DNA of 64,000 nt, taken from Alphaproteobacteria bacterium (lineage in GTDB: Bacteria; Pseudomonadota; Alphaproteobacteria; GM7ARS4; G965262615). Location: contig OZ253545.1 of NCBI GenBank assembly GCA_965262615.1, positions 1,152,001 through 1,216,000 of the forward strand. Reading direction: 5' to 3'. The translations under genes and the position numbers were made by a program. The notes beneath the pieces were generated by a model that saw only the letters and a program-made list of their open reading frames with translations, searched no databases and was not told the origin of the DNA. Each line of letters begins with the position of its first letter. Positions within the stretch are counted from its first letter, which is position 1. Positions 3 to 54,039 of the stretch are shown here, in pieces.

Positions 3-764
3 GGCTGGATGTATGACAATGGCATTGGTGTTGTGCAAGATTATGAGCAAGCCGCGCAATGGTTCACAAAAGCCGCGGTGCAAGGATTTGCCCGAGCTCA
101 AAGTAATCTTGCTATGATGTATCTTCATGGCAGAGGTGTTCCGCAGGATTATGAGCAAGCCGCGCAATGGTGGAGAAAAGCCGCAAGGCAAGGCTATGCC
201 AAGGCTCAATTCAATCTTGGGCTGATGTATCACAATGGAGATGGGGTTGCACAGGACGATGAGCAAGCTTTGTATTGGTGGGAGAAAGCCGCAAGACAAG
301 GAAATAAAGATGCAATAGAAGCTCTCAAAATATTAGGCATGGCTGATGAAACGGACGAATTGCACCAATTGAGAGAACGCGCCGAGCAAGGCGATGCCGA
401 TGCCCAAAACTATCTTGGTGTGATGTATAACACTGGCATGGGTGTGACGCAGGATAAAAAAGAAGCCGTGGAATGGTTCAAAAAATCCGCCGAACAAGGA
501 AATGCCCTCGCCCAAGCCAATCTTGGAGTGATGTATAGGGATGGGATGGGTGTCACGCAGGATGATGAGGAAGCTGTGGAATGGTGGAAAAAAGCCGCAG
601 AGCAAGAAAATGCCGTAGCCCAATACAATCTTGCTGTGATGTATGGCAAGGGAATCGGCGTGGCACAGAGTGATGAAAAAGCCGTCTATTGGTTCACAAA
701 AGCCGCCAAACAAGGCGATGTTGATGCAATAGAAGTTCTCAAGAAATTAGGCATCACCGACTGA
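3..764 (+). CDS. Sel1-like repeat (SLR) protein, 5'-truncated by window edge
   Basis: 36-aa units A(Q)xNLGxMYxxGxGVxQDxxxAxxWxxKAAxQG; frame is open to the window edge; ends ...AIEVLKKLGITD*. Confidence 0.93.
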   Translation, partial: GWMYDNGIGVVQDYEQAAQWFTKAAVQGFARAQSNLAMMYLHGRGVPQDYEQAAQWWRKAARQGYAKAQFNLGLMYHNGDGVAQDDEQALYWWEKAARQGNKDAIEALKILGMADETDELHQLRERAEQGDADAQNYLGVMYNTGMGVTQDKKEAVEWFKKSAEQGNALAQANLGVMYRDGMGVTQDDEEAVEWWKKAAEQENAVAQYNLAVMYGKGIGVAQSDEKAVYWFTKAAKQGDVDAIEVLKKLGITD

Positions 765-794
765 TTCCCCCTCGCCTTGAGGCAAGGACAGGCA

Positions 795-1226
795 TCAAAA
801 AAGTGCCGTGGCAACCATTCCCAACAGAGCCACCATCACGCTCACAAGAACAACAATCACCCGCGTCGCAAAGAGATTGAAAGCCTGCAACAACACATTG
901 ATATCTTCCTTAATTTCAGTTCGCGCCTGAGCGATTTGAGTTTCCAGTTTGGCGATTTGAGTTTCCAGTTTGGCGTTATTTTCATTATTTTCAGCTCGCG
1001 CCTGAGCGATTTGAGCTTCCAGTTTGGCGATTTGAGCTTCCAGTTTGGCGATTTTGGTCTCCAGTTTGGCGATATCTTCCTTCGTGGCAAAATTCTTGCC
1101 TTGCTCTTTGATGGTGGCAACATCCACCTTCAGAGCAACCACATCCGCTTTGAGGGCGACCACATCATCATACAAGCCATTCGCCTTGCGATGTTCGGTT
1201 GGTTTTTGTTCCGTCTGGATAGTCAT
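795..1226 (-). CDS. Tail-anchored coiled-coil protein, DUF1640/CCDC90-like (copy 1)
   Basis: FATKEDI neck motif, heptads IAKLE(T/A)Q, C-terminal hydrophobic helix; start set at ATG 1226, 7 nt after the -10 box, as in the paralogs. Confidence 0.85.
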   Translation of the reverse strand: MTIQTEQKPTEHRKANGLYDDVVALKADVVALKVDVATIKEQGKNFATKEDIAKLETKIAKLEAQIAKLEAQIAQARAENNENNAKLETQIAKLETQIAQARTEIKEDINVLLQAFNLFATRVIVVLVSVMVALLGMVATALF

Positions 1227-1233
1227 GGTGGTT

Positions 1234-1262
1234 AGAATATGTGCATTTGCAGGGTTTGTCAA
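1234..1262 (-). promoter_or_regulatory. Sigma70 promoter TTGACA-17-TATTCT, leaderless (copy 1)
   Basis: Minus strand reads TTGACA aaccctgcaaatgcaca TATTCT aaccacc ATG. Confidence 0.8.
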
Positions 1263-1406
1263 TGCCAAGATGCCTTACGGTCATTGCAGATGACCATGAG
1301 CAAGAGAAAACATCACTCAAAACATTGGGCATACCCAACTAATTCGCCCTCGCTCTTGCTTTTTGCCATTGGTTTTTGTATGGGTGGCGTGCCCAATGGC
1401 AATCAA

Positions 1407-2588
1407 ATGAGGATAGCTCCATTGAATGATCGACATCTCCCGTCTCGCCGCAGTGCCATTCCCTCATTTATTGTGATGGACATGATGGCGAAGGCATCGG
1501 CACTGGAACGGCGCGGGGTGAAGGTCATGCGTTTGGAGGCGGGCGCGCCGGACACCGCTCCGCCGCCCGCCATCCTCAAACAACTGGCACACACCCTCAC
1601 CAAGCGCAATTTTGGCTACACCGATTCCACCGGAACGCCCCAGCTCAAAGAACGCATTGCATGGCTCTATGGGCATCGCTATGGGCTTGAGATTGACCCA
1701 TCCCGCATCGTCATCTCCAGTGGCTCATCGGCGTGTCTGACTCTGGCACTGCTGGCGGCGTTTGAGCATGGGGATGTGATTGCTCTGCCGCGTCCGTGTT
1801 ATCCCGCCTATCGCCCCATGGCGGAGGCGTTGGGTCTGCGGGTGGTGGATATGCCGCTCACGGATGAGGACGGCTGGTGTCTGACGGCGCGTCATATTGA
1901 GCAGTGTGAGACCAAACCGAGCGGCATCATTCTCACCAATCCCGCCAACCCCACCGGCGCACTGATGGACGAACACCAACTGGCAACCATTGCTGATTAT
2001 TGCCGACATAATGGTATCCGCATCATCAGCGATGAGATTTATCACGATGTCACCGATGATGACCACACAGCTCACAGCATCCTCTCGTTTGACCCCGATG
2101 CCATCGTGACCAGTGGCTTTTCCAAGTTTTTTGCGCTGCCGGGCTGGCGTGTGGGCTGGATGATCGCGCCTGTCGCTTTTGCCTCCTCCCTGCTGGCATT
2201 ACAGCAAAATCTCTATGTCGCGCCGCCCAGCGCAGGACAAGAACTCGCGATTTCCATGCTACAAGAAGAGGTTATGGACACCATGAAACACCATGTACGG
2301 CGATGGAATGACAACCGCAATGTTTTGTTGCGGTTTATTGAGCAAAGCCCACTCAGTCTGACGGCTCAGCCGCGCGGCGGATTTTACATTTATTGCGATG
2401 CCGCCGCCGTCACCCATGACAGCGTGGCGTGGTGTGATGAGATATTGCATCGTCATCATGTGGCACTGGCGGCGGGCGTGGATTTTGACCCCGTGGACGG
2501 TCATAAATTCGTGCGTTTTTCCTTCTGCCGACCAAACAATGAGATTACTACTGCCTGCAAGATTCTCGACAAAGTGTTTAATTCTTAA
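1407..2588 (+). CDS. PLP-dependent class I/II aminotransferase (AspC-like)
   Basis: NPANPTG, ISDEIYH and SGFSKFFALPGWRVGW motifs; exact start uncertain. Confidence 0.9.
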   Translation: MRIAPLNDRHLPSRRSAIPSFIVMDMMAKASALERRGVKVMRLEAGAPDTAPPPAILKQLAHTLTKRNFGYTDSTGTPQLKERIAWLYGHRYGLEIDPSRIVISSGSSACLTLALLAAFEHGDVIALPRPCYPAYRPMAEALGLRVVDMPLTDEDGWCLTARHIEQCETKPSGIILTNPANPTGALMDEHQLATIADYCRHNGIRIISDEIYHDVTDDDHTAHSILSFDPDAIVTSGFSKFFALPGWRVGWMIAPVAFASSLLALQQNLYVAPPSAGQELAISMLQEEVMDTMKHHVRRWNDNRNVLLRFIEQSPLSLTAQPRGGFYIYCDAAAVTHDSVAWCDEILHRHHVALAAGVDFDPVDGHKFVRFSFCRPNNEITTACKILDKVFNS

Positions 2589-2665
2589 CCGTGAAAAAGC
2601 TGTTTTATCAGCCTCATCAGTGTGATACAATCGCGGCGGTCAATTGATGGCGCGAGGAGTTTGGT

Positions 2666-4189
2666 GTGGAAAAATTCTTTGAATACATTTTCCCAAAAAA
2701 AATCAGTACGAGGTCGCGAGTCTGTCTCTTATTCCTTGTACCCGCATTGTCCATTTTAATCCTTCTTCCATCAATTCTTGAAGCTTGGAATCAACCTCCA
2801 TTGCCAAGCCAATTTTTCTATTCTTTAATTACGGTAACAGGATTTCTGCTTTTTGCTTTGATTTTATCATTAATAAAAGATTTTGAAAAATCATCCGAGC
2901 CAACGCGTGACATAGCTAAAGACTTACATGATATGCTTCCTGAATTGGCGTTGTATATCACCGAACAATTGGTATCGGATAACATAAAAAATATGCAAAA
3001 GAAAGAAGCAACAAGACAATTTAATCTTGGTGTCAAACATTTATTTGGCAAGGGTGTTAAAAAAAATGCACAAAAAGCATTCCTCCACTTTGAAGCAGCC
3101 GCCCAACAAGGGGATGCCTACGCCCAATTCAATCTTGCTTTGATGTATAGGAATGGCAAAGGAGTGGCACAAAATGATAAGAAAGCCCTGTATTGGTATC
3201 AAAAAGCCGCCCAACAAGGGGATGCTAGAGCCCAATTCAATCTTGCTTGGATGTATCATGAGGGCAAAGGAGTGGCACAGAATGATGAGAAAGCCCTGTA
3301 TTGGTATCAAGAATCCGCCCAACAAGGGGATGCTAGAGCCCAATTCAATCTTGCTTTAATGTATCATGAGGGCAAAGGAGTGGCACAAAATGATGAGAAA
3401 GCCCTGTATTGGTATCAAAAAGCCGCCCAACAAGGGAATGCCAAAGCCCAATTCAATCTTGCTTGGATGTATGATGAGGGCAAAGGAGTGGCACAGAATG
3501 ATGAGAAAGCTGTGTATTGGTATCAAGAATCCGCCCAGCAAGGGGATGCCAAAGCCCAATTCAATCTTGCTTGGATGTATGATGAGGGCAAAGGAGTGGC
3601 ACAAAATGATAAGAAAGCACTATATTGGTATCAAGAATCCGCACAACAAGGAAGTGCCAGAGCCCAAATCAGTCTTGGGATGGCTTATGTTGGCGGAAAA
3701 GGTATTTCACAGGATTATCATGAGGCGATGCAATGGTTCAAAAAAGCCGCAGAACAAGGGAGTACCGATGCCCAAAACAATATTGGCTTTATGTATGCCA
3801 CTGGCATGGGTATTAAACCAAATGAGAAAAAAGCAGTGCATTGGCTCACAAAAGCTTCAGAGCAAGGATTTGCCATAGCCCAATTCAATCTCGCTGTGGT
3901 GTATGAAAGTGTGACACAGAATGATCAAAAAGCGAAGCACTGGTATCAAAAAGCCGTCCAGCAAGTTAGTGACGAAACCAAATTCACTCAGCAAGAAGAG
4001 CAGGAGAGGATCAAAGAAGCGGAACAAGAAGGGGATGCCAATTCCTTGTATCTTCTTGGCGTGAGATACGCCATTGGCGAAGAAGTCACGCGAGATTATG
4101 AAAAAGCGGCGCACTGGTTCACCCAAGCATCTCAGCTGAACTTTATTCAAGCCACGCGAGCTCTTGAATTGCTGAAAAAAGTCAAATAA
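2666..4189 (+). CDS. Membrane-anchored Sel1-like repeat protein
   Basis: GAGGAG RBS before GTG; two N-terminal hydrophobic helices followed by ~10 Sel1 units. Confidence 0.92.
   Translation: MEKFFEYIFPKKISTRSRVCLLFLVPALSILILLPSILEAWNQPPLPSQFFYSLITVTGFLLFALILSLIKDFEKSSEPTRDIAKDLHDMLPELALYITEQLVSDNIKNMQKKEATRQFNLGVKHLFGKGVKKNAQKAFLHFEAAAQQGDAYAQFNLALMYRNGKGVAQNDKKALYWYQKAAQQGDARAQFNLAWMYHEGKGVAQNDEKALYWYQESAQQGDARAQFNLALMYHEGKGVAQNDEKALYWYQKAAQQGNAKAQFNLAWMYDEGKGVAQNDEKAVYWYQESAQQGDAKAQFNLAWMYDEGKGVAQNDKKALYWYQESAQQGSARAQISLGMAYVGGKGISQDYHEAMQWFKKAAEQGSTDAQNNIGFMYATGMGIKPNEKKAVHWLTKASEQGFAIAQFNLAVVYESVTQNDQKAKHWYQKAVQQVSDETKFTQQEEQERIKEAEQEGDANSLYLLGVRYAIGEEVTRDYEKAAHWFTQASQLNFIQATRALELLKKVK
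3099..3650 (+). repeat. ~5 near-identical 108-bp tandem Sel1-coding units
   Basis: gcccaacaaggggatgc...caattcaatcttgctt...gtattggtatcaa recurs every 108 nt (3101, 3209, 3317, 3425, 3533). Confidence 0.92.
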
Positions 4190-4213
4190 AGCTCAAACTA
4201 CACGGGGTAAACA

Positions 4214-4424
4214 ATGGACATGGCTCATACTGATTTGCAACAATTGATGGAGCGCGCTCAACAAGGCGATGCCCTCAGCCCAAAACAGTCTGGGGTGCAT
4301 GTATGAACAAGGCAGAGGTGTCACGCAGGATTATGAAGAAGCCGTGCGATGGTTCAAAAAAGCCGCGAGGCAAGGAAATAAAGCTGCCATAAAATCCCTC
4401 AAAATTTTAGGCATGACCGACTAA
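4214..4424 (+). pseudogene. Frameshifted single-unit Sel1 mini-gene
   Basis: MDMAHTDLQQLMERAQQGDA, then one extra base near 4273, then SAQNSLGCMYEQGRGVTQDYEEAVRWFKKAARQGNKAAIKSLKILGMTD*; length 211 nt = 3n+1. Confidence 0.8.
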
Positions 4425-4438
4425 TTCAAGGGTTTTCG

Positions 4439-4768
4439 TCACTTCAAAATAAGTGTCACCAGAATGCCCACAAGGGACACAATCACTCCCGCCAGAGCCA
4501 CAATCACTCGCGCAGCGGCGCGATTGACGGCATCCAACAACTCATTTTTCGCCTTATCAATCTTGCCATCCACGACCGATATTTTGTCCAGCAGTTCAGC
4601 TCGCAAATCGGCAACATCTTCCTTCGTGGCAAAATGATTGCACTGCTCCTTGATGGTGGCAACATCCACTTTGAGAGTCACCACATCCGCTTTGAGAGCG
4701 ACCACATCATCATGCAAGCCATTCGCACCGCGATGCTTTGGTGGTTCTTGATTCGTTTCTATCGTCAT
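4439..4768 (-). CDS. Tail-anchored coiled-coil protein, DUF1640/CCDC90-like (copy 2)
   Basis: DDVVALKADV..FATKEDVADLRAEL..C-terminal TM ending ILVTLILK; paralog of 795-1226. Confidence 0.85.
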   Translation of the reverse strand: MTIETNQEPPKHRGANGLHDDVVALKADVVTLKVDVATIKEQCNHFATKEDVADLRAELLDKISVVDGKIDKAKNELLDAVNRAAARVIVALAGVIVSLVGILVTLILK

Positions 4769-4775
4769 GGTGATG

Positions 4776-4804
4776 AGAGTATGGGCATTTCAAGAATTTG
4801 TCAA
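4776..4804 (-). promoter_or_regulatory. Sigma70 promoter TTGACA-17-TACTCT, leaderless (copy 2)
   Basis: Minus strand reads TTGACA aattcttgaaatgccca TACTCT catcacc ATG. Confidence 0.8.
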
Positions 4805-4921
4805 TGGCAAGACGCATTACGATCATTGCAGATGACCATGAGGCAAGAGTCACCATCATTCAAAAAAGAGCAGTTGCAATTGCGTCTTAACTTTGCCATC
4901 CAAAAGCGGTATAAAAGCCCC

Positions 4922-5419
4922 ATGATGATTGCACGGTTGCTCGCCATCATAATGTTGCTCATGAGTGTCACCGCAACTTCCAGTCACGGCGAGATGATGC
5001 GCGTCAAAGGCATGGGGGGAATCTTCAATTTTGCCAAGGACAATAATTTTGCCTACGGCGCGGAGGTCACCCTGCCTTCACTCTTTTTGCCTTTGGGCTT
5101 GAATTTTGATGTGGGATTTCTCGCCACCGACCGCCGCGCCGTCTACGGCTACGCCGCCATTGAACGCGCTTTTTATGTTGATGACGACTGGCGCATCATC
5201 CCCTCATTGGCGATGGGATACTACGAACAAAAGGACGATAAAGATCTCGGATTTGAACTCAACTTCAAATCGGGCGGCGAGATTGCCTACCGCTTTGCTC
5301 ACAACGCATGGGCGGGAATTTCGGCTTTTCATATCTCCAACGCCTCGCTCAGCAGTCATAATCCGGGCACGGAGCTCTTTGTCTTCACCCTCACCTACGA
5401 TGTCAGTATAATTCCATGA
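4922..5419 (+). CDS. Acyloxyacyl hydrolase / PagL-family lipid A deacylase-like outer-membrane beta-barrel
   Basis: Signal peptide MMIARLLAIIMLL..., HISNA...NPG motif; real start is 4922, not the ORF-track 4634. Confidence 0.8.
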   Translation: MMIARLLAIIMLLMSVTATSSHGEMMRVKGMGGIFNFAKDNNFAYGAEVTLPSLFLPLGLNFDVGFLATDRRAVYGYAAIERAFYVDDDWRIIPSLAMGYYEQKDDKDLGFELNFKSGGEIAYRFAHNAWAGISAFHISNASLSSHNPGTELFVFTLTYDVSIIP

Positions 5420-6366
5420 GCGAGCGCATTCACGACTCCATCACCGACCTCATTGGCAAAACGCCTCTGTTGCGCCTCAATCGCTTTGCGCGCTTTCACC
5501 AGTGCGAGGCGGAGCTCATCGCCAAACTGGAGCTTCTCAATCCTCTTTCATCGGTGAAGGATCGCATCGGGCTTGCCATGATTGATGATGCCGTGGCAGC
5601 GGGACGCATCACCGCAAACACCACCATCATAGAACCCACATCCGGCAACACGGGCATTGCTCTGGCATTCGTGGCAGCCGCCCGAGGGCTGAAACTCATT
5701 TTAACCATGCCCGCCAGCATGTCTGTGGAACGCCGCAAAATGCTCCAATTGCTGGGCGCACAAACCCATCTCACCGACCCCGCCCGAGGCATGAAGGGCG
5801 CGATTGAAAAAGCACACGAACTGCACAAAGAAATCAAGGATTCCATCATTTTGCAACAGTTTGAAAATCCCGCCAATCCAACCATTCATCGCCACACCAC
5901 GGCGCAAGAAATATGGCACGATGTGGGCAGGCGGCTGGATATTTTCGTCTCGGGCGTGGGAACGGGCGGCACGGTGACCGGCGTGAGTGAGGTCATCAAA
6001 GAGCAGCACCCCGCCCTTCATGTGGTGGCGGTAGAACCCGAAGACTCCCCCGTTCTGTCGGGAGGCACGGCGGGACCCCACAAAATTCAAGGCATTGGCG
6101 CAGGCATGATTCCCAAAAATCTCAACCAACAAATGATTGATGAGGTCATCACCATCAGCAACGAGACGGCGTTTGAGACGGCGCGCACGGTGGCGCGTCT
6201 TGAGGGCTTGGCGGTAGGCATTTCATCGGGGGCGGCTCTGGCGGCGGCTTTAGAGGTGGGACAGCGAGCCCAAAACAAAGGCAAACGAATCCTTGTCATT
6301 CTGCCGTCCGCCGCCGAACGCTACCTCTCCACCGAGCTTTTTTCCGATGGCATGGATACCAAATAA
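5416..6366 (+). CDS. cysK: Cysteine synthase A
   Basis: NPLSSVKDRIG, EPTSGNTGIALA, GVGTGGT and HKIQGIGAG motifs. Confidence 0.96.
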   Translation: MSERIHDSITDLIGKTPLLRLNRFARFHQCEAELIAKLELLNPLSSVKDRIGLAMIDDAVAAGRITANTTIIEPTSGNTGIALAFVAAARGLKLILTMPASMSVERRKMLQLLGAQTHLTDPARGMKGAIEKAHELHKEIKDSIILQQFENPANPTIHRHTTAQEIWHDVGRRLDIFVSGVGTGGTVTGVSEVIKEQHPALHVVAVEPEDSPVLSGGTAGPHKIQGIGAGMIPKNLNQQMIDEVITISNETAFETARTVARLEGLAVGISSGAALAAALEVGQRAQNKGKRILVILPSAAERYLSTELFSDGMDTK

Positions 6367-6384
6367 CCGTGAAGAATTTTGGTA

Positions 6385-6413
6385 TTGACAAATTCTGCAA
6401 ATTCACATATTCT
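6385..6413 (+). promoter_or_regulatory. Sigma70 promoter TTGACA-17-TATTCT, leaderless (copy 3)
   Basis: TTGACA aattctgcaaattcaca TATTCT caccatc ATG(6421). Confidence 0.8.
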
Positions 6414-6420
6414 CACCATC

Positions 6421-6702
6421 ATGACGACAGAGACGAAGCAAAAAAAAGAATATCTCACGGTGACGGCAAAAACCTATCGCTTGAAGAGCGGTCGCGCTCT
6501 TCTCATGGTGGATTTTACCACTCATGAAAGTGTCGCCGCCCTGCAAAGTGACGATGCTGTCAGTTTGTTGCGGGGAGATATCGCTCAACTGCGTGAAGAA
6601 ATTGAGAGGGCGAAAAATGAAGTGATCTATGCCATCAATCGCGCCGCTGTGGGAGTCATTGTTTCTTGTGTGATCGTTATGGTGGCAATCATTCTTAAGT
6701 GA
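6421..6702 (+). CDS. Tail-anchored coiled-coil protein, divergent copy 3
   Basis: Same promoter cassette; IAQLREEIERAKNEV..AINRAA..hydrophobic tail ending IILK; N-terminal half differs from paralogs. Confidence 0.75.
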   Translation: MTTETKQKKEYLTVTAKTYRLKSGRALLMVDFTTHESVAALQSDDAVSLLRGDIAQLREEIERAKNEVIYAINRAAVGVIVSCVIVMVAIILK

Positions 6703-7460
6703 CCCTCTCTCGCCATGAGATGGAATTCTATGCCAGCCACATCATGCTCCCGCAGATTGGCGGCAGGGGACAAGAAAAAATCGGGCGTGCCAAAGTGCTG
6801 GTGGTGGGTGCGGGAGGCATCGGCACACCCCTCATCATCTATCTGACTACTGCGGGCGTGGGAACAATCGGCATCGCCGATGATGACACCGTTGAAACCA
6901 GCAATTTGCAACGCCAAATTCTCTACCGCCAAAACCACATCGGCGCGCTCAAAACCACCACCGCCATTGATGAAGCACGCGCCATCAATTCCGCCGTCAC
7001 CCTCATTCCTCACCCCCAACGCATGGATGATGACACTCTTGCCCACATCCTGCCGAGCTATGACATCATTGCCGATGGCTCGGACAACATCACCACCGCT
7101 CACTGTCTCAATAAAGCGGCGGTCAAACAGGGCAAAATCCTCATCAAGGCATCGGTGAGCGGCTGGAGCGGACAAATCACCACCATCATGGGCGGCAATA
7201 CAAACGCTCCCTGCTACGCCTGCCTCTTTCCACCATCGGACACCGATGCCAACGCTCCTTCATGCGTTGAGCAAGGGGTTCTCAATATGGCGGTGTGTGT
7301 CATGGCGGGATGGCTCGGTGCGGAGGTCATCAAGTGCATTATCGGGACGGGACAATCCCTCAAAGGACGACTCCTCCTCTATGACGCGCTGCAAGCGTCC
7401 ATGCACACCATCCAATACGATAAAAATCCCAGCTGCCCCGTCTGTGCCGCTAGGGTTTGA
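6699..7460 (+). CDS. ThiF/MoeB-family adenylyltransferase
   Basis: GAGGIG, DDDTVETSNLQRQ, CYAC and CPVC zinc motifs. Confidence 0.92.
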   Translation: MTLSRHEMEFYASHIMLPQIGGRGQEKIGRAKVLVVGAGGIGTPLIIYLTTAGVGTIGIADDDTVETSNLQRQILYRQNHIGALKTTTAIDEARAINSAVTLIPHPQRMDDDTLAHILPSYDIIADGSDNITTAHCLNKAAVKQGKILIKASVSGWSGQITTIMGGNTNAPCYACLFPPSDTDANAPSCVEQGVLNMAVCVMAGWLGAEVIKCIIGTGQSLKGRLLLYDALQASMHTIQYDKNPSCPVCAARV

Positions 7461-7983
7461 CCTGAATGCTACAGCCCCTCGTCATGTAATAGCGCGGGCT
7501 ATCATCATCGTCTCTTGCCAACAAGCCAAAGCGTTGCGGGTCATAGGCGTAGGAAATGGTCTGTTCGCGCGGGCGATAGCGATAGGGAAACTGACGAATA
7601 TACATTGATTGAATGTCATGAGCCTCTTGTTCTCGCATTGCATAGCGCACGCGCTCGCTGTAGTCACCAAAGCGTTCCTGATGCTTATTGCGGTGCTGCA
7701 TATGATGCACCAGTTCATGCACCAAAATAGAGACTGCGCACACATTCATCGCCCGTCCCATATCGTCACGCAAATAAACCGTCCGCTCCTCAATGTGATA
7801 AAATGCCACCACCGCACACCGTCGTCCCCCACACGCCATCTCTTGCAACGAATCCGATGACGCAAAAACCACCGAAGGGGTCTCCGAAGGCATGTCATAG
7901 CCAGAGACGCTCGCCACCCACAGCAATAACGAGGCAACCATATCTGTCAAAGAACTGACTCCAGAGTGAATCATGATACTCAC
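7450..7983 (-). CDS. Hypothetical HExxH putative zinc metallopeptidase (DUF6647-like)
   Basis: VAFYH..TVYL...SILVHELVHHMQ with downstream REQEA; start uncertain. Confidence 0.65.
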   Translation of the reverse strand: MSIMIHSGVSSLTDMVASLLLWVASVSGYDMPSETPSVVFASSDSLQEMACGGRRCAVVAFYHIEERTVYLRDDMGRAMNVCAVSILVHELVHHMQHRNKHQERFGDYSERVRYAMREQEAHDIQSMYIRQFPYRYRPREQTISYAYDPQRFGLLARDDDDSPRYYMTRGCSIQVKP

Positions 7984-7991
7984 CTATAGTC

Positions 7992-8034
7992 TCAATGACA
8001 AGATGAATGAGGCATGAATTGGGAAAGAATTTCA
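7992..8034 (-). repeat. Displaced in-frame copy of the bioA 3' end (direct repeat of 9393-9444)
   Basis: 7992-8005 matches 9393-9406 at 13/14 and 8011-8034 matches 9421-9444 at 23/24; reads EILSQFMPHSSCH* versus bioA EILAQFMPNDREASCD*. Confidence 0.85.
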
Positions 8035-8041
8035 AGCTGTG

Positions 8042-8070
8042 AGATTCTTGGCAAAGTGTTTAATTCTTAA
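8042..8070 (+). repeat. Copy of the aminotransferase 3' end (2560-2588)
   Basis: agattcttggcaaagtgtttaattcttaa versus agattctcgacaaagtgtttaattcttaa, 27/29. Confidence 0.85.
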
Positions 8071-8093
8071 TGGGAATATGGTAAGCTGCCACC

Positions 8094-8432
8094 ATGAGAA
8101 CCACCCGCCTTATCACATGGATTGCCATTGTCGTCATTGCTCATACGGGCTGGATGCCGAGCGTGGCTCATGCCGAAGAAGATGCCATAGCCCAATACAA
8201 TCTTGGGGTGGATTATTACAACGACAAGGACTACCTACAAGCAGCGTATTGGTGGAAAAAAGCCGCCGAACAAGGGAATGCCAATGCTCAAACCACTCTG
8301 GCGTTGATGTATTACGATGGCACAGGTGTCACACAGGACGGTCTGCAGGCGGCGTATTGGTTCAAAAAAGCCGCAGAACAAGGACATAAAGGGGCGATAA
8401 AAGCCCTCAAGAAGGAAATAAAGATGCGATAA
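8094..8432 (+). CDS. Secreted short Sel1-like repeat protein (2 units)
   Basis: Signal peptide ending VAHA-EE; AQYNLGVDY..WWKKAAEQG, then AQTTLALMYYDGTGVTQD..WFKKAAEQG. Confidence 0.88.
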   Translation: MRTTRLITWIAIVVIAHTGWMPSVAHAEEDAIAQYNLGVDYYNDKDYLQAAYWWKKAAEQGNANAQTTLALMYYDGTGVTQDGLQAAYWFKKAAEQGHKGAIKALKKEIKMR

Positions 8433-8478
8433 AAGCCCTCAAAACATTAGGCATGACCAACTAATTCAAGGGGTTTTA

Positions 8479-8760
8479 TCATTTAAGAATTAGTGTTACC
8501 AGAATGCCGCCCAGAGCCACAATCACTCCCACGAGAGCCACAATCACCCGCACGGCAAAGCGATTGATGGCTTCCAACAACTCATTTTTCGCCTCAATGA
8601 CATCTTTTTTGGTGGCAAAATGATTGCACCGCTCCTTGATGGTGGCAACATCCACCTTGAGATCCACCATATCATCACGCGAGCCATTGGCACCGCGATG
8701 CTTGGGTGTTTTCTGCACCTCGCGATGCTTTGGTGGTTCTTGCTGCGTTTCCATTGTCAT
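8479..8760 (-). CDS. Tail-anchored coiled-coil protein, DUF1640/CCDC90-like (copy 4, shortest stalk)
   Basis: LKVDVATIKERCNHFATKKDV..AKNELLEAINR..TM ILVTLILK. Confidence 0.85.
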   Translation of the reverse strand: MTMETQQEPPKHREVQKTPKHRGANGSRDDMVDLKVDVATIKERCNHFATKKDVIEAKNELLEAINRFAVRVIVALVGVIVALGGILVTLILK

Positions 8761-8767
8761 GGTGATG

Positions 8768-8796
8768 AGAATATGTGCGTTTGCAGGGTTTGTCAA
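8768..8796 (-). promoter_or_regulatory. Sigma70 promoter TTGACA-17-TATTCT, leaderless (copy 4)
   Basis: Minus strand reads TTGACA aaccctgcaaacgcaca TATTCT catcacc ATG. Confidence 0.8.
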
Positions 8797-8847
8797 TAAC
8801 AAAATTCTTCACGGTCATTTGGCATGACCATGAGGCAAGGGTTTTCG

Positions 8848-9360
8848 TCACTTCAAAATAAGTGTCACCAAGATGCCCACAAGAGACACAATCACTCCCA
8901 CAAGAGTCACAATCACCCGCGTAGCAACGCGATTGAAAGCTTCTAACACCTCATTTTTTGCCTTCTCAATCTTGTGATCCGTGGCTGACATTTTCTCCAG
9001 CAGTTCAGCTCGCAGTTCAGCCATGTCAGCTCGCAGTTCGGCGATGTTTTCCCTATTGTCAGCTCGCAGTTCGGCGATGTTTTCCCTATTGTCAGCTCGC
9101 AGTTCGGCGATGTTTTCCTTATTGTCAGCTCGCGCCTCAGCAATTTGAGTTTCCAGCTTGGCGATTTGAGCTTCCAGTTTGGCGATTTTGGTCTCCAACT
9201 TGGCGATATCTTCCTTCGTGGCAAAATTCTTGCCTTGCTCTTTGATGGTGGCAACATCCACCTTCAGAGCGACCACATCCGCTTTGAGGGCGACCACATC
9301 ATCATACAAGCCATTCGCCTTGCGATGTTCGGTTGGTTTTTGTTCCGTCTGGATAGCCAT
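8848..9360 (-). CDS. Tail-anchored coiled-coil protein, DUF1640/CCDC90-like (copy 5, longest stalk)
   Basis: 5' half near-identical to copy 1 and 3' end near-identical to copy 2; three 11-aa ADN(K/R)ENIAELR repeats. Confidence 0.87.
   Translation of the reverse strand: MAIQTEQKPTEHRKANGLYDDVVALKADVVALKVDVATIKEQGKNFATKEDIAKLETKIAKLEAQIAKLETQIAEARADNKENIAELRADNRENIAELRADNRENIAELRADMAELRAELLEKMSATDHKIEKAKNEVLEAFNRVATRVIVTLVGVIVSLVGILVTLILK
9024..9133 (-). repeat. 33-bp tandem repeat x3 encoding hendecad coiled-coil units
   Basis: tgtcagctcgc recurs at 9024, 9057, 9090 and 9123. Confidence 0.9.
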
Positions 9361-9367
9361 AGTGGTT

Positions 9368-9396
9368 AGAATATGTGCATGTCAAGCGTTTGTCAA
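9368..9396 (-). promoter_or_regulatory. Sigma70 promoter TTGACA-17-TATTCT, leaderless (copy 5); -35 box contains the bioA stop codon
   Basis: Minus strand reads TTGACA aacgcttgacatgcaca TATTCT aaccact ATG; bioA TGA is at 9395-9393. Confidence 0.8.
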
Positions 9397-10727
9397 TCAC
9401 AAGATGCCTCACGGTCATTTGGCATGAATTGGGCAAGAATTTCATGCAGCTGCTGCCACGCTTCACGCAGTGCCTGTGGTGCGATGCAATACGGTGGCAT
9501 CATATAGACCACATTACCCAACGGACGCAGCAACAGCCCGCGCCGCAACGCCTCTTCGCCAATGGCTGTGCCAATGGTGGCGTGATAGCCTTCATCCTTG
9601 CCATCAATGGTGAAGGCGGCAATCGTTCCCATGATGCGCGGCTTGGTGATGTGAGGCAGAGTCATGATGTCTTGCATGGCGGTGTGATGAATGTGTTCTA
9701 TGGCGCGAATGCGCGTCCATGTGTCGTCCGCATCAAACAGCTGCAATGATGCCAGTGCCGCGGCGCATGCCAATGGATTGGCGGTGTAGGAATGACCATG
9801 AGCAAAAAAGTGTCCCCCATCATGAGCAAAAGCCTCATAGATATGGTTCTGAATGATGGTCGCCGCAAGGGGAAGCGTGCCACCAGTCAATCCTTTGGCA
9901 CAACAGAGAATGTCCGGCTGGTGTGCCAATTGGTCGCTGGCGAACAATGAGCCCAAGCGTCCAAAGGCGGTCATGACTTCGTCAAAAATAATAAGCGCAT
10001 CGCTTTTGGTGCGAATCATGGCAACCGCCTCATTGAAAAAACGCCTTGAGCTCATCCGCATGCCACTCGCTCCCTGCACCAACGGCTCTAAAATGACCGC
10101 ATTGAGAGTGTGCCCGTTGGTGTGCAAGTGTTCAGATAGTGTCTCAAGGGCGCGCTCTTCGGTCACGCCCATTGCGTTGTCATGCAGCCATGTCTCGGGA
10201 TACGAGGTGAAATGAAACGGATAGAGCAAGGATTCAAACCCCTCATAGAGCTGGCATGAGACCCCCGCCGCCATCGCCCCCATGGTGTCACCGTGATAGC
10301 CTCCCTCCAATGCCAGAAAGTGCTTGGGTTCTTTGCCCTTTTTGCGCCAGTAGAGCCATGCCATTTTGAGAGCAATTTCAACGGCGCACGAGCCATTATC
10401 GGAGAAAAACACCCGCTGCAATGATGATGGTGTCACCCGCGCCAGATGCTCTGCCACCCGCACCGCGCCCTCATGAGTCACACCGGCAAACAACACATGA
10501 GACAATCGCTCACTTTGTTTGTGAATGGCTTTCATGATGGCAGGATGACGATGACCGTGGGTCACCACCCACCACGAAGAGATGAGATCCTGATAGCCGC
10601 GATCCGTTTCATCATAGAGAACACTGCCTTCAGCTCGCGTGATGACCAACGGCGCACCGCCCTTATCAAACGGATGCCACAAATGAGTCGCGTCTAAAGA
10701 CGAAAGATTATGTGGAAACGCCATCAA
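9393..10727 (-). CDS. bioA: DAPA aminotransferase
   Basis: HLWHPF, SSWWV, FFSDNGS, YHGDTMGAM, FDEVMT and AKGLTGGTLP motifs; bio cluster. Confidence 0.96.
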   Translation of the reverse strand: MMAFPHNLSSLDATHLWHPFDKGGAPLVITRAEGSVLYDETDRGYQDLISSWWVVTHGHRHPAIMKAIHKQSERLSHVLFAGVTHEGAVRVAEHLARVTPSSLQRVFFSDNGSCAVEIALKMAWLYWRKKGKEPKHFLALEGGYHGDTMGAMAAGVSCQLYEGFESLLYPFHFTSYPETWLHDNAMGVTEERALETLSEHLHTNGHTLNAVILEPLVQGASGMRMSSRRFFNEAVAMIRTKSDALIIFDEVMTAFGRLGSLFASDQLAHQPDILCCAKGLTGGTLPLAATIIQNHIYEAFAHDGGHFFAHGHSYTANPLACAAALASLQLFDADDTWTRIRAIEHIHHTAMQDIMTLPHITKPRIMGTIAAFTIDGKDEGYHATIGTAIGEEALRRGLLLRPLGNVVYMMPPYCIAPQALREAWQQLHEILAQFMPNDREASCD

Positions 10728-11122
10728 ACAAGATGGTGAATTTTTTCATGATGCCCTTGAGGGGATTTTGAGTTTTTGCCATCACGACCATCCAAATAGG
10801 TCTTGTAGAAAAGATTGTGATAGTGAGCAATGAGCTGTGTGACATCATTGTCATCTTCCACTCTAAAAACACGCACATTTCTGACACACTGACCAAACCA
10901 CTCATGATGTGCCACCATCTCTTGCAAGGCACTGACGCACTCCAGCCAAGAAGATGCTCCCAAATAGACACTGCCCTGCACATTGACCAAAGCATACTTC
11001 TTGAAAACATCACCAATGGCTTTGTAGGCATTTTGATAGGAAGTGGGACATTCTCGCTCCAGACACTTTGTGTCCATATCAAACACCACGGCATAAGTTG
11101 AACTGCTGGTTTTCGGTGTCAT
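10724..11122 (-). CDS. vapD: Virulence-associated protein D (VapD, Cas2-like nuclease fold)
   Basis: YAVVFDMDT..YQNAY..QGSVY..WFGQCVRNVRVFRVEDDND matches the VapD pattern. Confidence 0.85.
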   Translation of the reverse strand: MTPKTSSSTYAVVFDMDTKCLERECPTSYQNAYKAIGDVFKKYALVNVQGSVYLGASSWLECVSALQEMVAHHEWFGQCVRNVRVFRVEDDNDVTQLIAHYHNLFYKTYLDGRDGKNSKSPQGHHEKIHHLV

Positions 11123-11139
11123 GGTTCTAATTTAATCAA

Positions 11140-11796
11140 TTACGATAACGATAGCAAGCTTGTGTCATAAGGCGGATGGCGGGCAAAAAATTCTTCTGAC
11201 AATGGCTGATGAAACGGCAGATGACCGACAATTGACACATCACCATAACGCTCAATTGCGGACGCGTTTTCATCATCGGCGTCTCCCACCAACACGACTC
11301 CCGCCACCTCAATGCCGTGCAGACGCAATGCCTGCAGTGTCAAACAGGTATGATTGATCGTTCCCAGAGCGGTGCGCGCCACCACAATCGCCGATGCTTG
11401 CCACAAGGCAAAGGCATCAATCATGAATTGGGAATCATTGAGAGGCACCATCACGCCGCCTGCGCCTTCAATGATGAGAGGGGCATCATCAGGAGTTGGC
11501 GGTGTCAATTGGTCAAGGGCAATGGTGACTCCTTCGGCGGCGGCGGCTTCATGAGGCGAGCGCGCCAGCTGAAAATCATAGGCGGGAGGTGCGGCAACCA
11601 CGCCGCCCAGTGATGCCACACGAGATGAATCATCCGTGCCGCTCTCGTCTCGTCCGCATTGAATCGCCTTCCAGTAAGCCCCGCCACCATGATGCAGCAA
11701 CCACGCCGCCACCACGGTTTTACCCACATTGGTATCGCTTCCTGTGACAATCATACGAGGTGTCATATTGTCTTTTTGGCTGTCTTTTTGGGTCAT
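11140..11796 (-). CDS. bioD: Dethiobiotin synthase
   Basis: VTGSDTNVGKT, EGAGG and LGTINHT motifs; ATGA overlap with the bioC stop. Confidence 0.94.
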   Translation of the reverse strand: MTQKDSQKDNMTPRMIVTGSDTNVGKTVVAAWLLHHGGGAYWKAIQCGRDESGTDDSSRVASLGGVVAAPPAYDFQLARSPHEAAAAEGVTIALDQLTPPTPDDAPLIIEGAGGVMVPLNDSQFMIDAFALWQASAIVVARTALGTINHTCLTLQALRLHGIEVAGVVLVGDADDENASAIERYGDVSIVGHLPFHQPLSEEFFARHPPYDTSLLSLS

Positions 11797-53706: not shown

Positions 53707-54039
53707 ATGAGCACTAAAGGAATTCCTGAACTGAAAGAAATCCTTGAAGTAGTGATTAAAATGCAAGATGATTTAACAGCGTTAAGTCATCGTGTTGACA
53801 CGCGTTTCGATGAATTCGACAAGCGTTTTGATGAATTCGACAAGCGTTTCGGTGAAATTAGAGAACGCTTAGATAAATTAGAGGCAGAAGTCAAAAATCT
53901 TCGTAAGGCACATGAAATTCTGACGGAAAATATCAGTGAGGCTCTGTCGCGCATTGATCTTTTGGAGAAAAGAGTAAAGAAATTAGAAAGTTTGGAAGAC
54001 AGGGTCAGCCAATTGGAAAAGCCAAAGGACAAGACCTAG
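53707..54039 (+). CDS. Soluble heptad coiled-coil protein (FDEFDKR repeats)
   Basis: AAGGAG RBS, AT-rich, continuous heptads; 21-bp tandem repeats at 53802-53856. Confidence 0.8.
   Translation: MSTKGIPELKEILEVVIKMQDDLTALSHRVDTRFDEFDKRFDEFDKRFGEIRERLDKLEAEVKNLRKAHEILTENISEALSRIDLLEKRVKKLESLEDRVSQLEKPKDKT

Follow-up and report, generated by a model that had tools for sequence, protein, structure and literature searches.

Convergent Sel1-repeat and coiled-coil genes in an alphaproteobacterial genome: evidence for self-contained coiled-coil cassettes

Three times within the first 9.5 kb of the window (the whole 64,000-nt stretch of genome that was analysed), a Sel1-repeat gene or remnant meets a small coiled-coil (CC) gene tail to tail. 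Do the two genes form a cassette that is copied and diversified as a unit, as the first-pass annotation proposed, or does the pairing follow from the places where one partner has landed?

Convergent modules in the window

The three convergences lie at 764/795, 4424/4439 and 8464/8479, as first described, and the ORFs confirm both the tandem CC gene at 8848 and a fifth CC gene between cysK (5416–6366) and thiF (6699–7460). The features are as follows.

3–764, + strand: Sel1 gene 1, 3′ part, ending LKKLGITD*
738–775, no strand: direct repeat copy A flanking cc1 (last 9 Sel1 codons, stop and 11 nt)
795–1226 (ORF also given to 1268), − strand: cc1, 143 aa, with FATKED, 21- and 75-nt arrays and a C-terminal hydrophobic helix
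1234–1303, − strand: cc1 promoter (TTGACA-17-TATTCT, 7 nt before ATG) and 2×14-nt palindrome (1271–1303)
1316–1353, no strand: second direct repeat flanking cc1 (copy B), containing the Sel1 cap relic SLKTLGIPN*
2666–4189, + strand: Sel1 gene 2, 507 aa, 10 Sel1 repeats, ending LELLKKVK* without a cap
4215–4424 (ORF 4269–4424), + strand: frameshifted Sel1 remnant, one repeat, ending LKILGMTD*
4439–4768, − strand: cc2, 109 aa, shortest complete family member
4776–4845, − strand: cc2 promoter (TTGACA-17-TACTCT-7-ATG) and palindrome (4813–4845)
6361–6702, + strand: cc3 cassette (promoter 6385–6413; ORF 6421–6702, 93 aa), the most divergent copy
8011–8037, no strand: 27-bp direct repeat from the bioA 3′ end, left copy, at the edge of a 1,410-bp insertion
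8037–8070, + strand: copied last 34 nt of the aminotransferase gene (source 2555–2588, 88 % identical)
8094–8464, + strand: Sel1 gene 3 (112-aa ORF 8094–8432; LKTLGMTN* cap out of frame)
8479–8837, − strand: cc4 unit (ORF 8479–8760, also given to 8802, 93 aa; promoter 8768–8796; palindrome 8805–8837)
8848–9420, − strand: cc5 unit, tandem to cc4 (ORF 8848–9360, 170 aa; promoter 9368–9396)
9421–9447, no strand: 27-bp direct repeat, right copy, lying within bioA (9393–10727, − strand)

All four window Sel1 frames scored above the Pfam cut-off of 30.7 bits (238.9, 334.4, 53.1 and 59.7 bits), bearing out their identification as Sel1. The full frame of gene 1 (550 aa) begins 888 nt ahead of the window; its bases 381–750 share 94.6 % identity with a Sel1 paralogue at genome positions 933666–934035, and the similarity ends at LKKL. 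The three caps originally read as LK(I/K/T)LG(M/I)T(D/N)* are present; however, the second belongs to a remnant frameshifted near 4262, and the third is out of frame on account of a 32-nt tandem duplication (8380–8442), which makes the ORF of gene 3 stop at 8432, ahead of the cap (to 8464). Two of the three modules have a frameshift in the Sel1 frame next to the CC gene. A cap-like LKILGMAD also occurs inside gene 1 (277–341), and a fourth cap relic, of 40 nt, lies at 1306–1345.

The junction string reported as conserved at about 4407 and 8448 was found at 4407–4438 and 8447–8478. Modules 2 and 3 share this Sel1/CC junction and the 34-nt aminotransferase 3′ piece (2555–2588, matched at 8037–8070), and the copies are linked through repeat families D6, D8, D9, D12–D14 and D17. 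Module 1, modules 2/3 and CC locus L005 have differing junctions, which could reflect three independent juxtapositions.

A CC cassette with its own promoter is the recurring unit

Searches of the 1.54-Mb genome (hmmsearch and tblastn) revealed 11 CC genes at nine loci and three further copies of a sister subfamily. A Sel1 gene abuts at four of the nine loci, with 14–47 nt between the stops; at the remaining five no Sel1 gene is next to the CC gene, and about 21 of 25 Sel1 frames stand apart from any CC gene. One CC locus lies amid ankyrin genes and others follow bioA, cysK, hemD or a peptidase gene. What recurs across the genome is the CC gene together with a promoter of its own, and not a Sel1/CC pair. 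Copying of both genes together holds for modules 2 and 3; genome-wide, however, the copied unit is the CC gene alone.

On the sense strand, the cassette opens with the right half of a palindrome (AAATGACCGTGAGGCA), followed by a consensus sigma-70 promoter (TTGACA-17 nt-TATTCT), 7 nt, the ATG, an ORF of 93–194 aa and a tail of about 25 nt ending in the left half of the palindrome. This promoter geometry is kept in all copies. The strict promoter–ATG pattern occurs 20 times in the genome against 0–2 in five shuffles, and 13 of the 15 instances of TTGACA-16..18-TAnnnT-5..9-ATG followed by an ORF of at least 60 aa are these CC genes; as background, TAnnnT precedes the start by 5–9 nt in 78 of 832 genes. 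Given a promoter 7 nt ahead of the ATG, the transcripts probably lack a leader.

The cassette ends are inverted 14-nt arms (13/14 complementary) around a 5-nt spacer. Tandem copies are set apart by the 2×14-nt palindrome, full palindromes are confined to positions between or upstream of CC copies, and both ends of a tandem CC pair in the ankyrin cluster fall in the palindrome loop. The palindrome at 8805–8837 looks like a terminator for cc5, judging by its predicted folding (z −4.16; 0/200 shuffles fold equally well), and ahead of that of cc2 (4813–4845) lies what is left of the stop region of a different CC gene. A common 5′ end, AAATGA(C/G)CGTGA, abuts three targets, namely bioA, the ankyrin gene and cysK; in cc3 it reads AAATAACCGTGA and begins at 6361, overlapping the cysK stop (6364–6366), and in cc5 it reads AAATGACCGTGAGG, at 9420. 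The 5′ boundaries differ at L001, L002, L003 and L005. A 9-mer common to the palindrome and the Sel1 cap, GGTCATGCC, is so frequent in the genome (54 occurrences against about 13 expected) that it lends no support to a target-site argument.

Insertion at gene 3′ ends, strain polymorphism and mosaicism

Flanking repeats were looked for at all nine CC loci. Three insertions are bounded by direct repeats of 27–38 bp derived from the 3′ end of the target gene, each pair unique in the genome, and none were found at the other six loci. The copies are 28/28 identical around the tandem pair in the ankyrin cluster, 25/27 around the insertion at 8038–9420 and 30/38 around cc1 (738–775 versus 1316–1353; pair unique genome-wide at ≤10 mismatches). 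At bioA, the last residues (NDREASCD*) are encoded by cc5 cassette sequence. At its 3′ side the 1,410-bp insertion terminates in part of another gene, not in a palindrome half. Together, the unique repeat pairs and the promoter-pattern count rule out chance as the explanation. A 5,164-nt contig from run X5, from another study, covers 4686–8010 and then joins 9421 (13 ambiguous letters); it is an empty site, exactly at the 27-bp repeat, in a related strain.

Comparison of 5′ and 3′ blocks gave unequal identities: 94 % versus 69 % for cc1/cc5, 75 % versus 91 % for L003/L002 and 89 % versus 51 % for L005/cc1, and bases 4429–4493 share 98.5 % identity with the 3′ end of L005. By these alignments the CC copies are mosaics, presumably formed through gene conversion. 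Tandem Repeats Finder detected the repeat arrays, namely the 21- and 75-nt arrays of cc1 and a 33-nt array in cc5 (3.3 copies, 98 % identity).

On balance, and with modest confidence, we favour the spread of self-contained CC cassettes to gene 3′ ends by host recombination, the pairing with Sel1 being a by-product. The first 9.5 kb of the window would then be a plastic zone in which cassettes landed at the 3′ ends of resident genes or a short way beyond them. They would multiply in tandem, with the full palindrome between copies as a terminator-like hairpin, be copied to new sites with duplication of 27–38 bp of target, and swap segments through gene conversion, while 21-, 33- and 75-nt repeats grow and shrink within the genes. 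Cassettes that came to rest within Sel1 3′ ends, or directly behind them, would account for the convergent arrangement, together with one later local duplication of the segment (module 2 to module 3). RecA is encoded in the genome, with RuvB and RuvC inside the window, and we favour host recombination with palindrome-stimulated template switching over a dedicated transposase.

An unlikely alternative treats the CC unit as a non-autonomous mobile element: a dedicated enzyme or Xer-type recombinases would cut the palindrome loop and insert the stretch from loop to loop at a widely staggered cut in the target. The identical 5′ end at three unrelated targets, the ankyrin-cluster pair bounded by the loop, the inverted arms and the empty site in another strain all fit such an element; the 27-, 28- and 38-bp repeats resemble target duplications, and repeats of this length with a precise shared 5′ end are explained no less well by a dedicated enzyme than by template switching. 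Tyrosine recombinase core sites are inverted arms around a short spacer, as are the cassette ends, and the genome encodes two Xer-size tyrosine recombinases (PF00589). However, tyrosine recombination leaves no 27–38 bp target duplication, the duplication length varies, the 5′ boundaries differ at four loci, the 1,410-bp insertion has no palindrome half at its 3′ end, and a genome-wide search of this 98 %-complete single-contig assembly for seven transposase families gave no match. Consistent with the initial reading of the window, no integrase or transposase domain was found in the 69 window ORFs scanned (16 + 53).

CC units share with integron cassettes their small, single-gene tandem form, an imperfect intervening palindrome and boundaries within it; they differ in having their own promoter, a palindrome of about 33 nt with the boundary in its loop, and a scattered distribution at gene 3′ ends with 27–38-bp flanking repeats. 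With MITE/IS elements they have in common inverted terminal arms, target direct repeats and presence/absence between strains, but their flanking repeats are long and of varying length, and they carry a passenger gene that is predicted to be expressed.

Sel1 pairing as a probable by-product of landing sites

Could Sel1 and CC nevertheless be a functional two-gene module that is duplicated and diversifies jointly in the service of host interaction, its partners acting together, for instance through binding of the stalk by the Sel1 domain? Adjacency at four of nine CC loci lies far above naive chance (about 1e-5 with some 25 Sel1 frames in a set of about 1,318 genes, assuming independent loci, which these are not), so that some genuine bias towards Sel1 ends, or else a functional link, is possible. 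Conservation of the Sel1 tail with the CC 3′ end at 4407 and 8447 points the same way, and the product of Sel1 gene 2, with its two predicted N-terminal hydrophobic segments, could hold its repeats on the cytoplasmic side, next to the CC stalk. We nonetheless consider a functional module improbable. Most copies of either family lack the other, and the Sel1 partner is frameshifted at 4215–4424 and 8094–8464, reduced to a 40-nt relic at 1306–1345 and different in its C-terminus at L005. Several Sel1 genes have signal-peptide-like N-termini and CC genes none, and CC units are flanked by duplicated sequence of the unrelated targets bioA and the ankyrin gene. On the favoured reading, Sel1 and CC are not an obligate two-gene functional unit, and the apparent gene pair looks like a by-product of cassette landing sites.

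The CC protein

CC proteins comprise a short N-terminal part, a FATKED β-layer motif, a coiled-coil repeat stalk that differs in length between copies and, at the C-terminus, one membrane helix. The DUF1640/CCDC90-like family (PF07798; human MCUR1, CCDC90B and bacterial homologues), to which this layout had been likened and whose head-neck-stalk-anchor organization was reportedly described by Adlakha et al. in 2019, has the same A-T-K-x-D/E motif at the start of its coiled-coil stalk and a C-terminal membrane helix. CC proteins lack its N-terminal head (model positions ~1–50, FDT...QAE) and number 11 + 3 copies in one 1.54-Mb genome. The likeness in motif, stalk and helix stands, but homology is detectable at profile level only: the best window score against PF07798 was 21.0 bits (cut-off 33.5). 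Searched against 1.84 billion proteins, the CC family profile (A1) retrieved only seven representatives at E≤1e-10, and 17 of the 41 weaker hits scanned (208 in all) pass the PF07798 cut-off. hhalign of A1 against A2 gave a probability of 98.8 %, over the compositionally biased repeat stalk and membrane helix, with the two ATK motifs not aligned to each other. The family is hypervariable and lineage-restricted; it was not found in 40 relatives, and cc2 had no tblastn match in 72,556 plasmids. At this profile level, CC proteins are best regarded as a divergent, lineage-restricted offshoot of DUF1640/CCDC90-like proteins.

The trimer model of cc2 reached an ipSAE of 0.77 (best control 0.00), past a mark attained by 20/30 solved homo-pairs and 1/23 single chains, although similar structures have already been solved and the pass may reflect structures already known to the predictor. 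Runs agreed in at least 90 % of contacts (partner pLDDT at least 83), which are unbroken over residues 45–52, i.e. FATKED. According to the excerpted text of PMC4786415, [aliphatic]-A-T-K-[polar]-[DE] is a trimer β-layer motif at the stalk start of DUF1640 proteins. CC proteins have a tail anchor and no signal peptide, for which a cytoplasmic stalk is predicted; we infer a parallel trimer in the cytoplasmic membrane that may act as a scaffold or spacer.

Borrelia Bdr proteins offer a partial parallel, being a multi-copy paralogous family of a host-associated bacterium, anchored via the C-terminus. Plasmids and prophages carry the bdr genes; CC genes, by contrast, are chromosomal and stand among housekeeping genes, and we know of no palindrome-bounded cassette or flanking target repeat for bdr. 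A Borrelia 'DUF1640 domain-containing protein' is presumably a Bdr. Such a protein is listed in the excerpt of PMC6856195; according to that of PMC3303823, Bdr proteins contain internal direct repeats varying in number from strain to strain, homologous recombination shuffles their alleles and their function is unknown.

Setting of the genome

Large sets of eukaryote-like Sel1 and ankyrin repeat proteins mark sponge and other symbionts, and this genome holds such sets, with at least 150 Sel1 and 85 ankyrin matches, very rich for 1.54 Mb. Five of the nine CC loci lie in or beside such repeat-protein clusters. Taken with the hypervariable, lineage-restricted family and its mitochondrial DUF1640 relatives (PMC4786415, in part), this might suggest that CC proteins are exported, host-directed tail-anchored mimics of eukaryotic proteins, varying under host pressure. 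There seems little chance of this, as CC proteins have no signal peptide, a search for VirB4 found no VirB4-type secretion ATPase in the genome, and bacterial DUF1640 proteins are described, in the same excerpt, as the bacterium's own integral membrane proteins. Misassembled repeats or chance similarity are highly improbable: short-read run contigs do break within repeats, but the genome is one contig with no N, the flanking repeat pairs are unique, and contigs of X1, X2 and X4 match unique junctions with 0–3 differences (e.g. 7422–8048, 8498–8865 and 8169–8476), although the best-matching run may be the source sample. Runs labelled marine and sponge metagenome contain parts of the stretch, in small shares except for X5.

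Arrangement of the Sel1 and coiled-coil genes

The first-pass annotation had described a recurring arrangement in which a forward-strand Sel1-repeat gene meets, tail to tail, a reverse-strand gene of a small coiled-coil (CC) family, with a lone fifth CC copy between cysK and thiF. The ORF list and Pfam matches confirmed this layout, including all three convergent modules:

3-764 (+), Sel1 gene (Sel1 #1), module 1
795-1226 (-), CC gene cc1, module 1
2666-4189 (+), Sel1 gene, module 2
4269-4424 (+), one-repeat Sel1 remnant, module 2
4439-4768 (-), CC gene cc2, module 2
6421-6702 (+), lone CC gene cc3, between cysK and thiF
8094-8432 (+), Sel1 gene (Sel1 #3), module 3
8479-8760 (-), CC gene cc4, module 3
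8848-9360 (-), CC gene cc5, tandem copy beside cc4

The stop-to-stop gaps in the three modules are 30, 14 and 14 nt, and four window frames exceed the Pfam gathering score for Sel1 (PF08238; 238.9, 334.4, 53.1 and 59.7 bits versus a cut-off of 30.7). The junction string reported as conserved was recovered at 4407 and 8447. Three details depart from the first-pass annotation: the third Sel1 C-terminal cap is present as sequence but has been put out of frame by a tandem duplication of 32 nt at 8380-8442, the Sel1 remnant of module 2 is frameshifted near 4262, and an additional cap relic is found at 1306-1345. Housekeeping genes make up the remainder of the window (the bio operon, the mraZ-ftsZ cluster, ruvB, ruvC and others), and a domain scan of 69 ORFs returned no integrase or transposase, in agreement with the first-pass annotation.

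Some smaller features were also seen in the window. Sel1 #1 carries an internal cap (LKILGMAD, 277-341), and the stretch after it, ETDELHQL..., shares homology with the beginning of the remnant at 4215 (DMAHTDLQQL..., 4215-4270); Sel1 #1 looks like two Sel1 genes fused once intervening material was lost. A 132-aa ORF between bioA and bioD (10724-11122, -) matches CRISPR_Cas2 weakly and below threshold (E value 4.5e-4; 20.8 bits versus a cut-off of 23.8), and a 110-aa ORF (53707-54039, +) has a weak coiled-coil match to DUF7310 (26.8 bits versus a cut-off of 40) and falls outside the CC family by profile search.

Genome-wide distribution and linkage to Sel1

The window lies on a single contig of 1,542,258 bp with 51 % G+C. 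A genome search with a profile built from the window's five CC proteins returned 11 family members at nine loci, together with three copies of a sister subfamily (subfamily 2); CC genes represent ~1 % of the genome's genes, as listed by a longest-ORF heuristic. Sel1 repeats gave at least 150 scored matches in ~25 open frames; the majority of these form a cluster 15-36 kb before the window, in which no CC gene lies. Ankyrin repeats gave 85 matches. Two large eukaryote-like repeat clusters (genome positions 994700-1009300 and 1116000-1137000) hold about a dozen ankyrin and about a dozen Sel1 genes. A VirB4-type ATPase was looked for in the genome and not found.

CC genes are convergent with Sel1 at four of the nine loci, namely the three in the window and a fourth (L005) at genome positions 1498572-1499018 versus 1499066-1499932. 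Of the CC loci that have no Sel1 partner, one lies between xseA and purD, one follows an M16 peptidase gene, one follows hemD (the nearby Sel1 genes being 2.7 kb off), one is a tandem CC pair amid four ankyrin genes and one is cc3 in the cysK-thiF gap. With four of nine CC loci touching Sel1, the families are linked above naive chance, yet not obligately. The proposal that Sel1 and CC form a two-gene cassette copied as a unit was upheld only in part: what recurs is the CC gene together with its own signals, and both the five Sel1-free loci and the decay of the abutting Sel1 frame in two of the three window modules argue against an obligate pair. The recurring 'pair' looks more like a footprint of cassette landing sites than a functional operon-like module. 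It is also conceivable that CC genes have a true preference for Sel1/ankyrin surroundings, through either insertion tolerance or a functional tie.

Ends of the CC unit and a filled/empty site

Between tandem CC copies, and upstream of cc1 and cc2, we found a palindrome with two 14-nt arms, TGCCTCATGGTCAT-n5-ATGACCGTGAGGCA (window 1271-1303, 4813-4845 and 8805-8837; genome 1007914-1007946), whose predicted folding beats that of shuffled sequences (z -4.16) and which is scored as terminator-like. The two arms are the termini of the CC unit, and the first copy of an insertion begins exactly at the right arm, with AAATGA(C/G)CGTGA adjoining bioA (window 9420), an ankyrin gene and cysK (window 6361). 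The idea that each CC gene is followed by a conserved 3' hairpin terminator was rejected, as only the palindrome beats shuffles and the other nine tails gave z values of -2.5 to +0.8.

Three insertions are flanked by direct repeats, and all three pairs are unique in the genome:

Direct repeats flanking CC insertions (insertion; identity; repeated sequence)
Tandem pair in the ankyrin cluster; 28/28; last codons of the ankyrin gene
Window 8038-9420; 25/27; last codons of bioA
cc1; 30/38; end of Sel1 #1 plus 11 nt

A search for flanking repeats at the remaining six of the nine CC loci found none. The Sel1 cap (GGCATGACC) was rejected as a specific half-site for insertion, this 9-mer occurring 54 times in the genome.

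Contigs from four of the 11 listed sequencing runs were compared with the window; these are short-read contigs, which break in repeats. In a run from a different study (X5; ~3 % diverged), a contig of 5,164 nt spans 4686-8010 and resumes at 9421, indicating that this strain lacks a 1,410-bp block (Sel1 #3, cc4 and cc5), exactly at the repeat. At the junction, 13 letters fit both sides, as many as make up the longest identical run of the 27-bp repeat. The filled form is present in contigs of three runs (X1, X2 and X4), the best-matching of which may be the source sample.

Genes upstream of an insertion have their ends within the cassette. BioA ends in ...FMPNDREASCD* here, and translation of the empty site predicts ...FMPHSSCH*; the stop codon of cysK lies within the first bases of the cassette, that of hemD within its -35 box, and the ankyrin gene ends in NPK* with the cassette instead of NPS*. 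Just past the stop codon of the aminotransferase gene, the sequence (TAA)CCGTGAAAAAG (window 2589-2603) resembles the cassette right arm AACCGTGAAGAA and may be what is left of an earlier cassette end. A copied aminotransferase fragment at 8037-8070 breaks exactly at the stop codon of the same gene.

Promoter and predicted leaderless start

Every CC copy is preceded by TTGACA, 17 nt, TATTCT (or TATCAT, TATGAT or TACTCT), 7 nt and ATG (GTG in one copy), and all copies lack a Shine-Dalgarno sequence. A strict pattern (-10 hexamer 5-9 nt before the start, no Shine-Dalgarno sequence) fits 10 of the 11 main-family copies, the eleventh being the copy with the GTG start, and all three subfamily-2 copies. 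When the genome was scanned strictly for this geometry ahead of ORFs of at least 60 aa, 13 of the 15 matches were CC genes, among them the three of subfamily 2, in which the spacer sequence is unrelated. The bare promoter-ATG motif occurs 20 times in the genome versus 0-2 times in five shuffles, and as a crude background any TAnnnT lies 5-9 nt before the start in 78 of 832 genes (~9 %). Retention of a near-perfect promoter and a predicted leaderless start in every copy argues for strong selection on expression. As the -10 box ends 7 nt ahead of the ATG, transcription is expected to start at or next to the start codon, and CC mRNAs are thus predicted to be leaderless.

A comparable spacing was seen in canonical PF07798 (DUF1640) genes from six other genomes of the class, where TAnnnT lies 5-9 nt before the first ATG in 10 of 18 distinct genes; these include paralogues and so are not independent, and the ~9 % background is that of the present genome rather than theirs. 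Only three of the 18 have a Shine-Dalgarno-like motif, and several of the genes without TAnnnT carry CATAAT or CATAGT at that place. The distribution of PF07798 in the class is patchy (6 of 201 genomes, multi-copy where present). A corollary of the more speculative mobile-cassette reading discussed below is that bacterial DUF1640 genes in general may have been expressed without leaders since early in the family's history.

In the promoter region of the L005 copy (genome 1498480-1498560), a 15-nt unit is present three times in tandem, and every repeat has a TTGACA box of its own.

Mosaicism and segmental copying

The 5' and 3' blocks of the CC copies give conflicting similarities: cc1 and cc5 share 94 % identity in the 5' block and 69 % in the 3' block, and the corresponding values are 75 and 91 % for L003 and L002 (copies outside the window), 83 and 61 % for L004b (another such copy) and cc4, and 89 and 51 % for L005 and cc1. 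Over its last 65 nt, the L005 copy matches cc2 at 98.5 % identity. Stalk length varies through arrays of 21, 33 and 75 nt. Among the Sel1 genes, bases 381-750 of Sel1 #1 are 94.6 % identical to a paralogue 218 kb off, the likeness ending at ...LKKL.

Modules 2 and 3 have in common both their junction and a 34-nt piece of the aminotransferase 3' end, and so represent a single segmental copy. Module 1 is bounded by a flanking repeat of its own, and the junctions of module 1 and L005 differ from that of modules 2 and 3.

The genome encodes RecA, RuvB and RuvC. Searches for seven transposase families (PF01609, PF00665, PF01797, PF00872, PF13358, PF01385 and PF01548) returned no matches, and tyrosine recombinases (PF00589) are represented only by two Xer-size frames, at 22 kb and 409 kb, far from the CC loci.

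Identity and narrowness of the CC protein family

Bacterial DUF1640 proteins are relatives of the mitochondrial scaffold MCUR1; to our knowledge, they have no known function. The first-pass annotation had assigned the CC proteins a DUF1640/CCDC90 layout, and this stands in part. None reaches the PF07798 gathering score of 33.5 bits (cc5, 21.0; cc3, 16.4), the other window CC proteins gave no match at E≤0.01, and the whole genome gave none at E≤1e-5. The DUF1640 N-terminal head (FDT...G..E.QAE, model positions ~1-50) is absent from the CC family alignment (A1) and present in an alignment of its PF07798-type distant relatives (A2); hhalign aligns the two only from template column 58 on (98.8 %, E value 1.3e-16), a match that rests on the repeat stalk and membrane helix, both of them compositionally biased. 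The A1 profile returned 208 weaker matches, of which 41 were scanned: 17 pass PF07798, 12 fall below its cut-off and 12 have no match. Two PF07798-positive intermediates (P0022 and P0041) share an LK(V/I)DV...ATK(E/S)D stretch with the CC family, their own version being LKIDV..(V/Y)ATKSD.

What does hold, besides this distant homology, is the beta-layer motif. According to Hartmann et al. (PMC4786415), [aliphatic]-A-T-K-[polar]-[DE] forms a beta-layer in trimeric coiled coils, and in DUF1640 membrane proteins it is found where the stalk begins. In the CC family the motif reads F-A-T-K-E-D, with F46 invariant and A47, T48, K49 and D51 nearly so in A1; the first residue is thus aromatic rather than aliphatic, and the motif otherwise conforms. 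A three-copy model scored 0.77 versus 0.00 for the best control (of 30 solved homo-pairs 20 attained the mark, as did 1 of 23 single chains), with runs agreeing in at least 90 % of contacts, pLDDT of at least 83 and contacts unbroken over residues 45-52; as similar trimers have already been solved, the model shows likeness rather than proof. By sequence, the proteins have heptad/hendecad repeats and a hydrophobic C-terminus whose helix is preceded by two arginines and followed by one lysine; together with the absence of a signal peptide, this charge pattern leads us to infer a putative N-in tail anchor. We have filed the family as a divergent relative of DUF1640, not a member by Pfam's rule.

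The family is a very narrow one. Close homologues amount to 17 metagenome proteins, and at E≤1e-10 the A1 profile matched seven representatives among 1.84 billion proteins. A search of 40 relatives from the same order or class found no CC match; in that set, this genome alone represents its family. A pattern scan of 185,579 species genomes returned no true match (two chance-level loci, E values 1e-3 to 1e-4), and a search of metagenome contigs with the family alignment returned four weak, chance-level loci. NCBIfam gave no match over a cut-off; PHROGs gave only phrog_9415, of unknown function (E value 4.5e-12 to cc5); PDB sequences gave only 5apz (E value 0.004); and in the ESM Atlas the matches were unnamed clusters and a single cluster named DUF1640 (0.90), recognition staying below the mark. 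The tblastn searches against phage and plasmid collections returned no match (cc2 versus plasmids, E≤0.01).

A probable self-contained cassette

The reading with the best support makes the CC gene a self-contained cassette, which would multiply in tandem and be copied to new sites at gene ends, its copies being homogenised patchily through gene conversion. Sel1 genes would be among its landing sites, with one Sel1-CC block duplicated locally.

The CC unit is reminiscent of insertion sequences and MITEs in its terminal inverted repeats; however, its flanking repeats are 27, 28 and 38 bp rather than a short target duplication of fixed length, they are lacking at most loci, and the genome has no cognate transposase from the families searched. 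Unlike the promoterless ORF of an integron cassette, each CC unit has its own consensus promoter, and no integrase is adjacent. The closest known analogue in population behaviour is Borrelia Bdr. The bdr genes are described (PMC3303823) as multi-copy and of unknown function, with repeat-number variation and reassortment by homologous recombination. Sequence similarity to bdr genes on Borrelia plasmids was sought with cc2, which had no match in the plasmid collection.

Precise palindrome-loop ends and long target duplications are an unusual combination, and could reflect copying either through template switching stimulated by the palindrome or by an enzyme not yet recognised. We consider it rather doubtful, if worth stating, that the CC unit is a new kind of mobile cassette, bounded by palindrome halves, with its own promoter and a leaderless ORF, inserting at gene 3' ends, rewriting their last codons and duplicating a 27-38 bp target. 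If so, in a genome without recognisable transposases it would owe its movement to hairpin-directed template switching or to a recombinase, either unknown or co-opted.

The self-contained cassette would be a tangible example of how units the size of a gene spread through a reduced genome without recognisable transposases, featuring a palindrome-loop boundary, long target duplications and a site filled or empty between strains, and in which landing copies rewrite the C-termini of housekeeping genes (bioA, cysK and hemD). The expansion also provides a tractable set of natural length variants of DUF1640-like proteins.

Subfamily-2 genes in the rRNA region

The rRNA genes are spread out in the region that carries the subfamily-2 genes (L006, genome 678001-695000), which contains the 16S (locus positions 3120-4619), tRNAs (6755 and 8038), the 23S (8830-11582) and the 5S (16713-16828), with protein-coding ORFs between 16S and 23S and ~5 kb of ORFs between 23S and 5S. 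The three subfamily-2 CC genes lie ~160 nt from the 3' ends of the 16S (convergent) and the 23S (a tandem pair in the same direction). Downstream of one of them, s2a, about four tandem copies of a 15-nt unit (GTGACCATAGAATTG-like; genome 682650-682775) lie in the interval separating it from the 3' end of the 16S.
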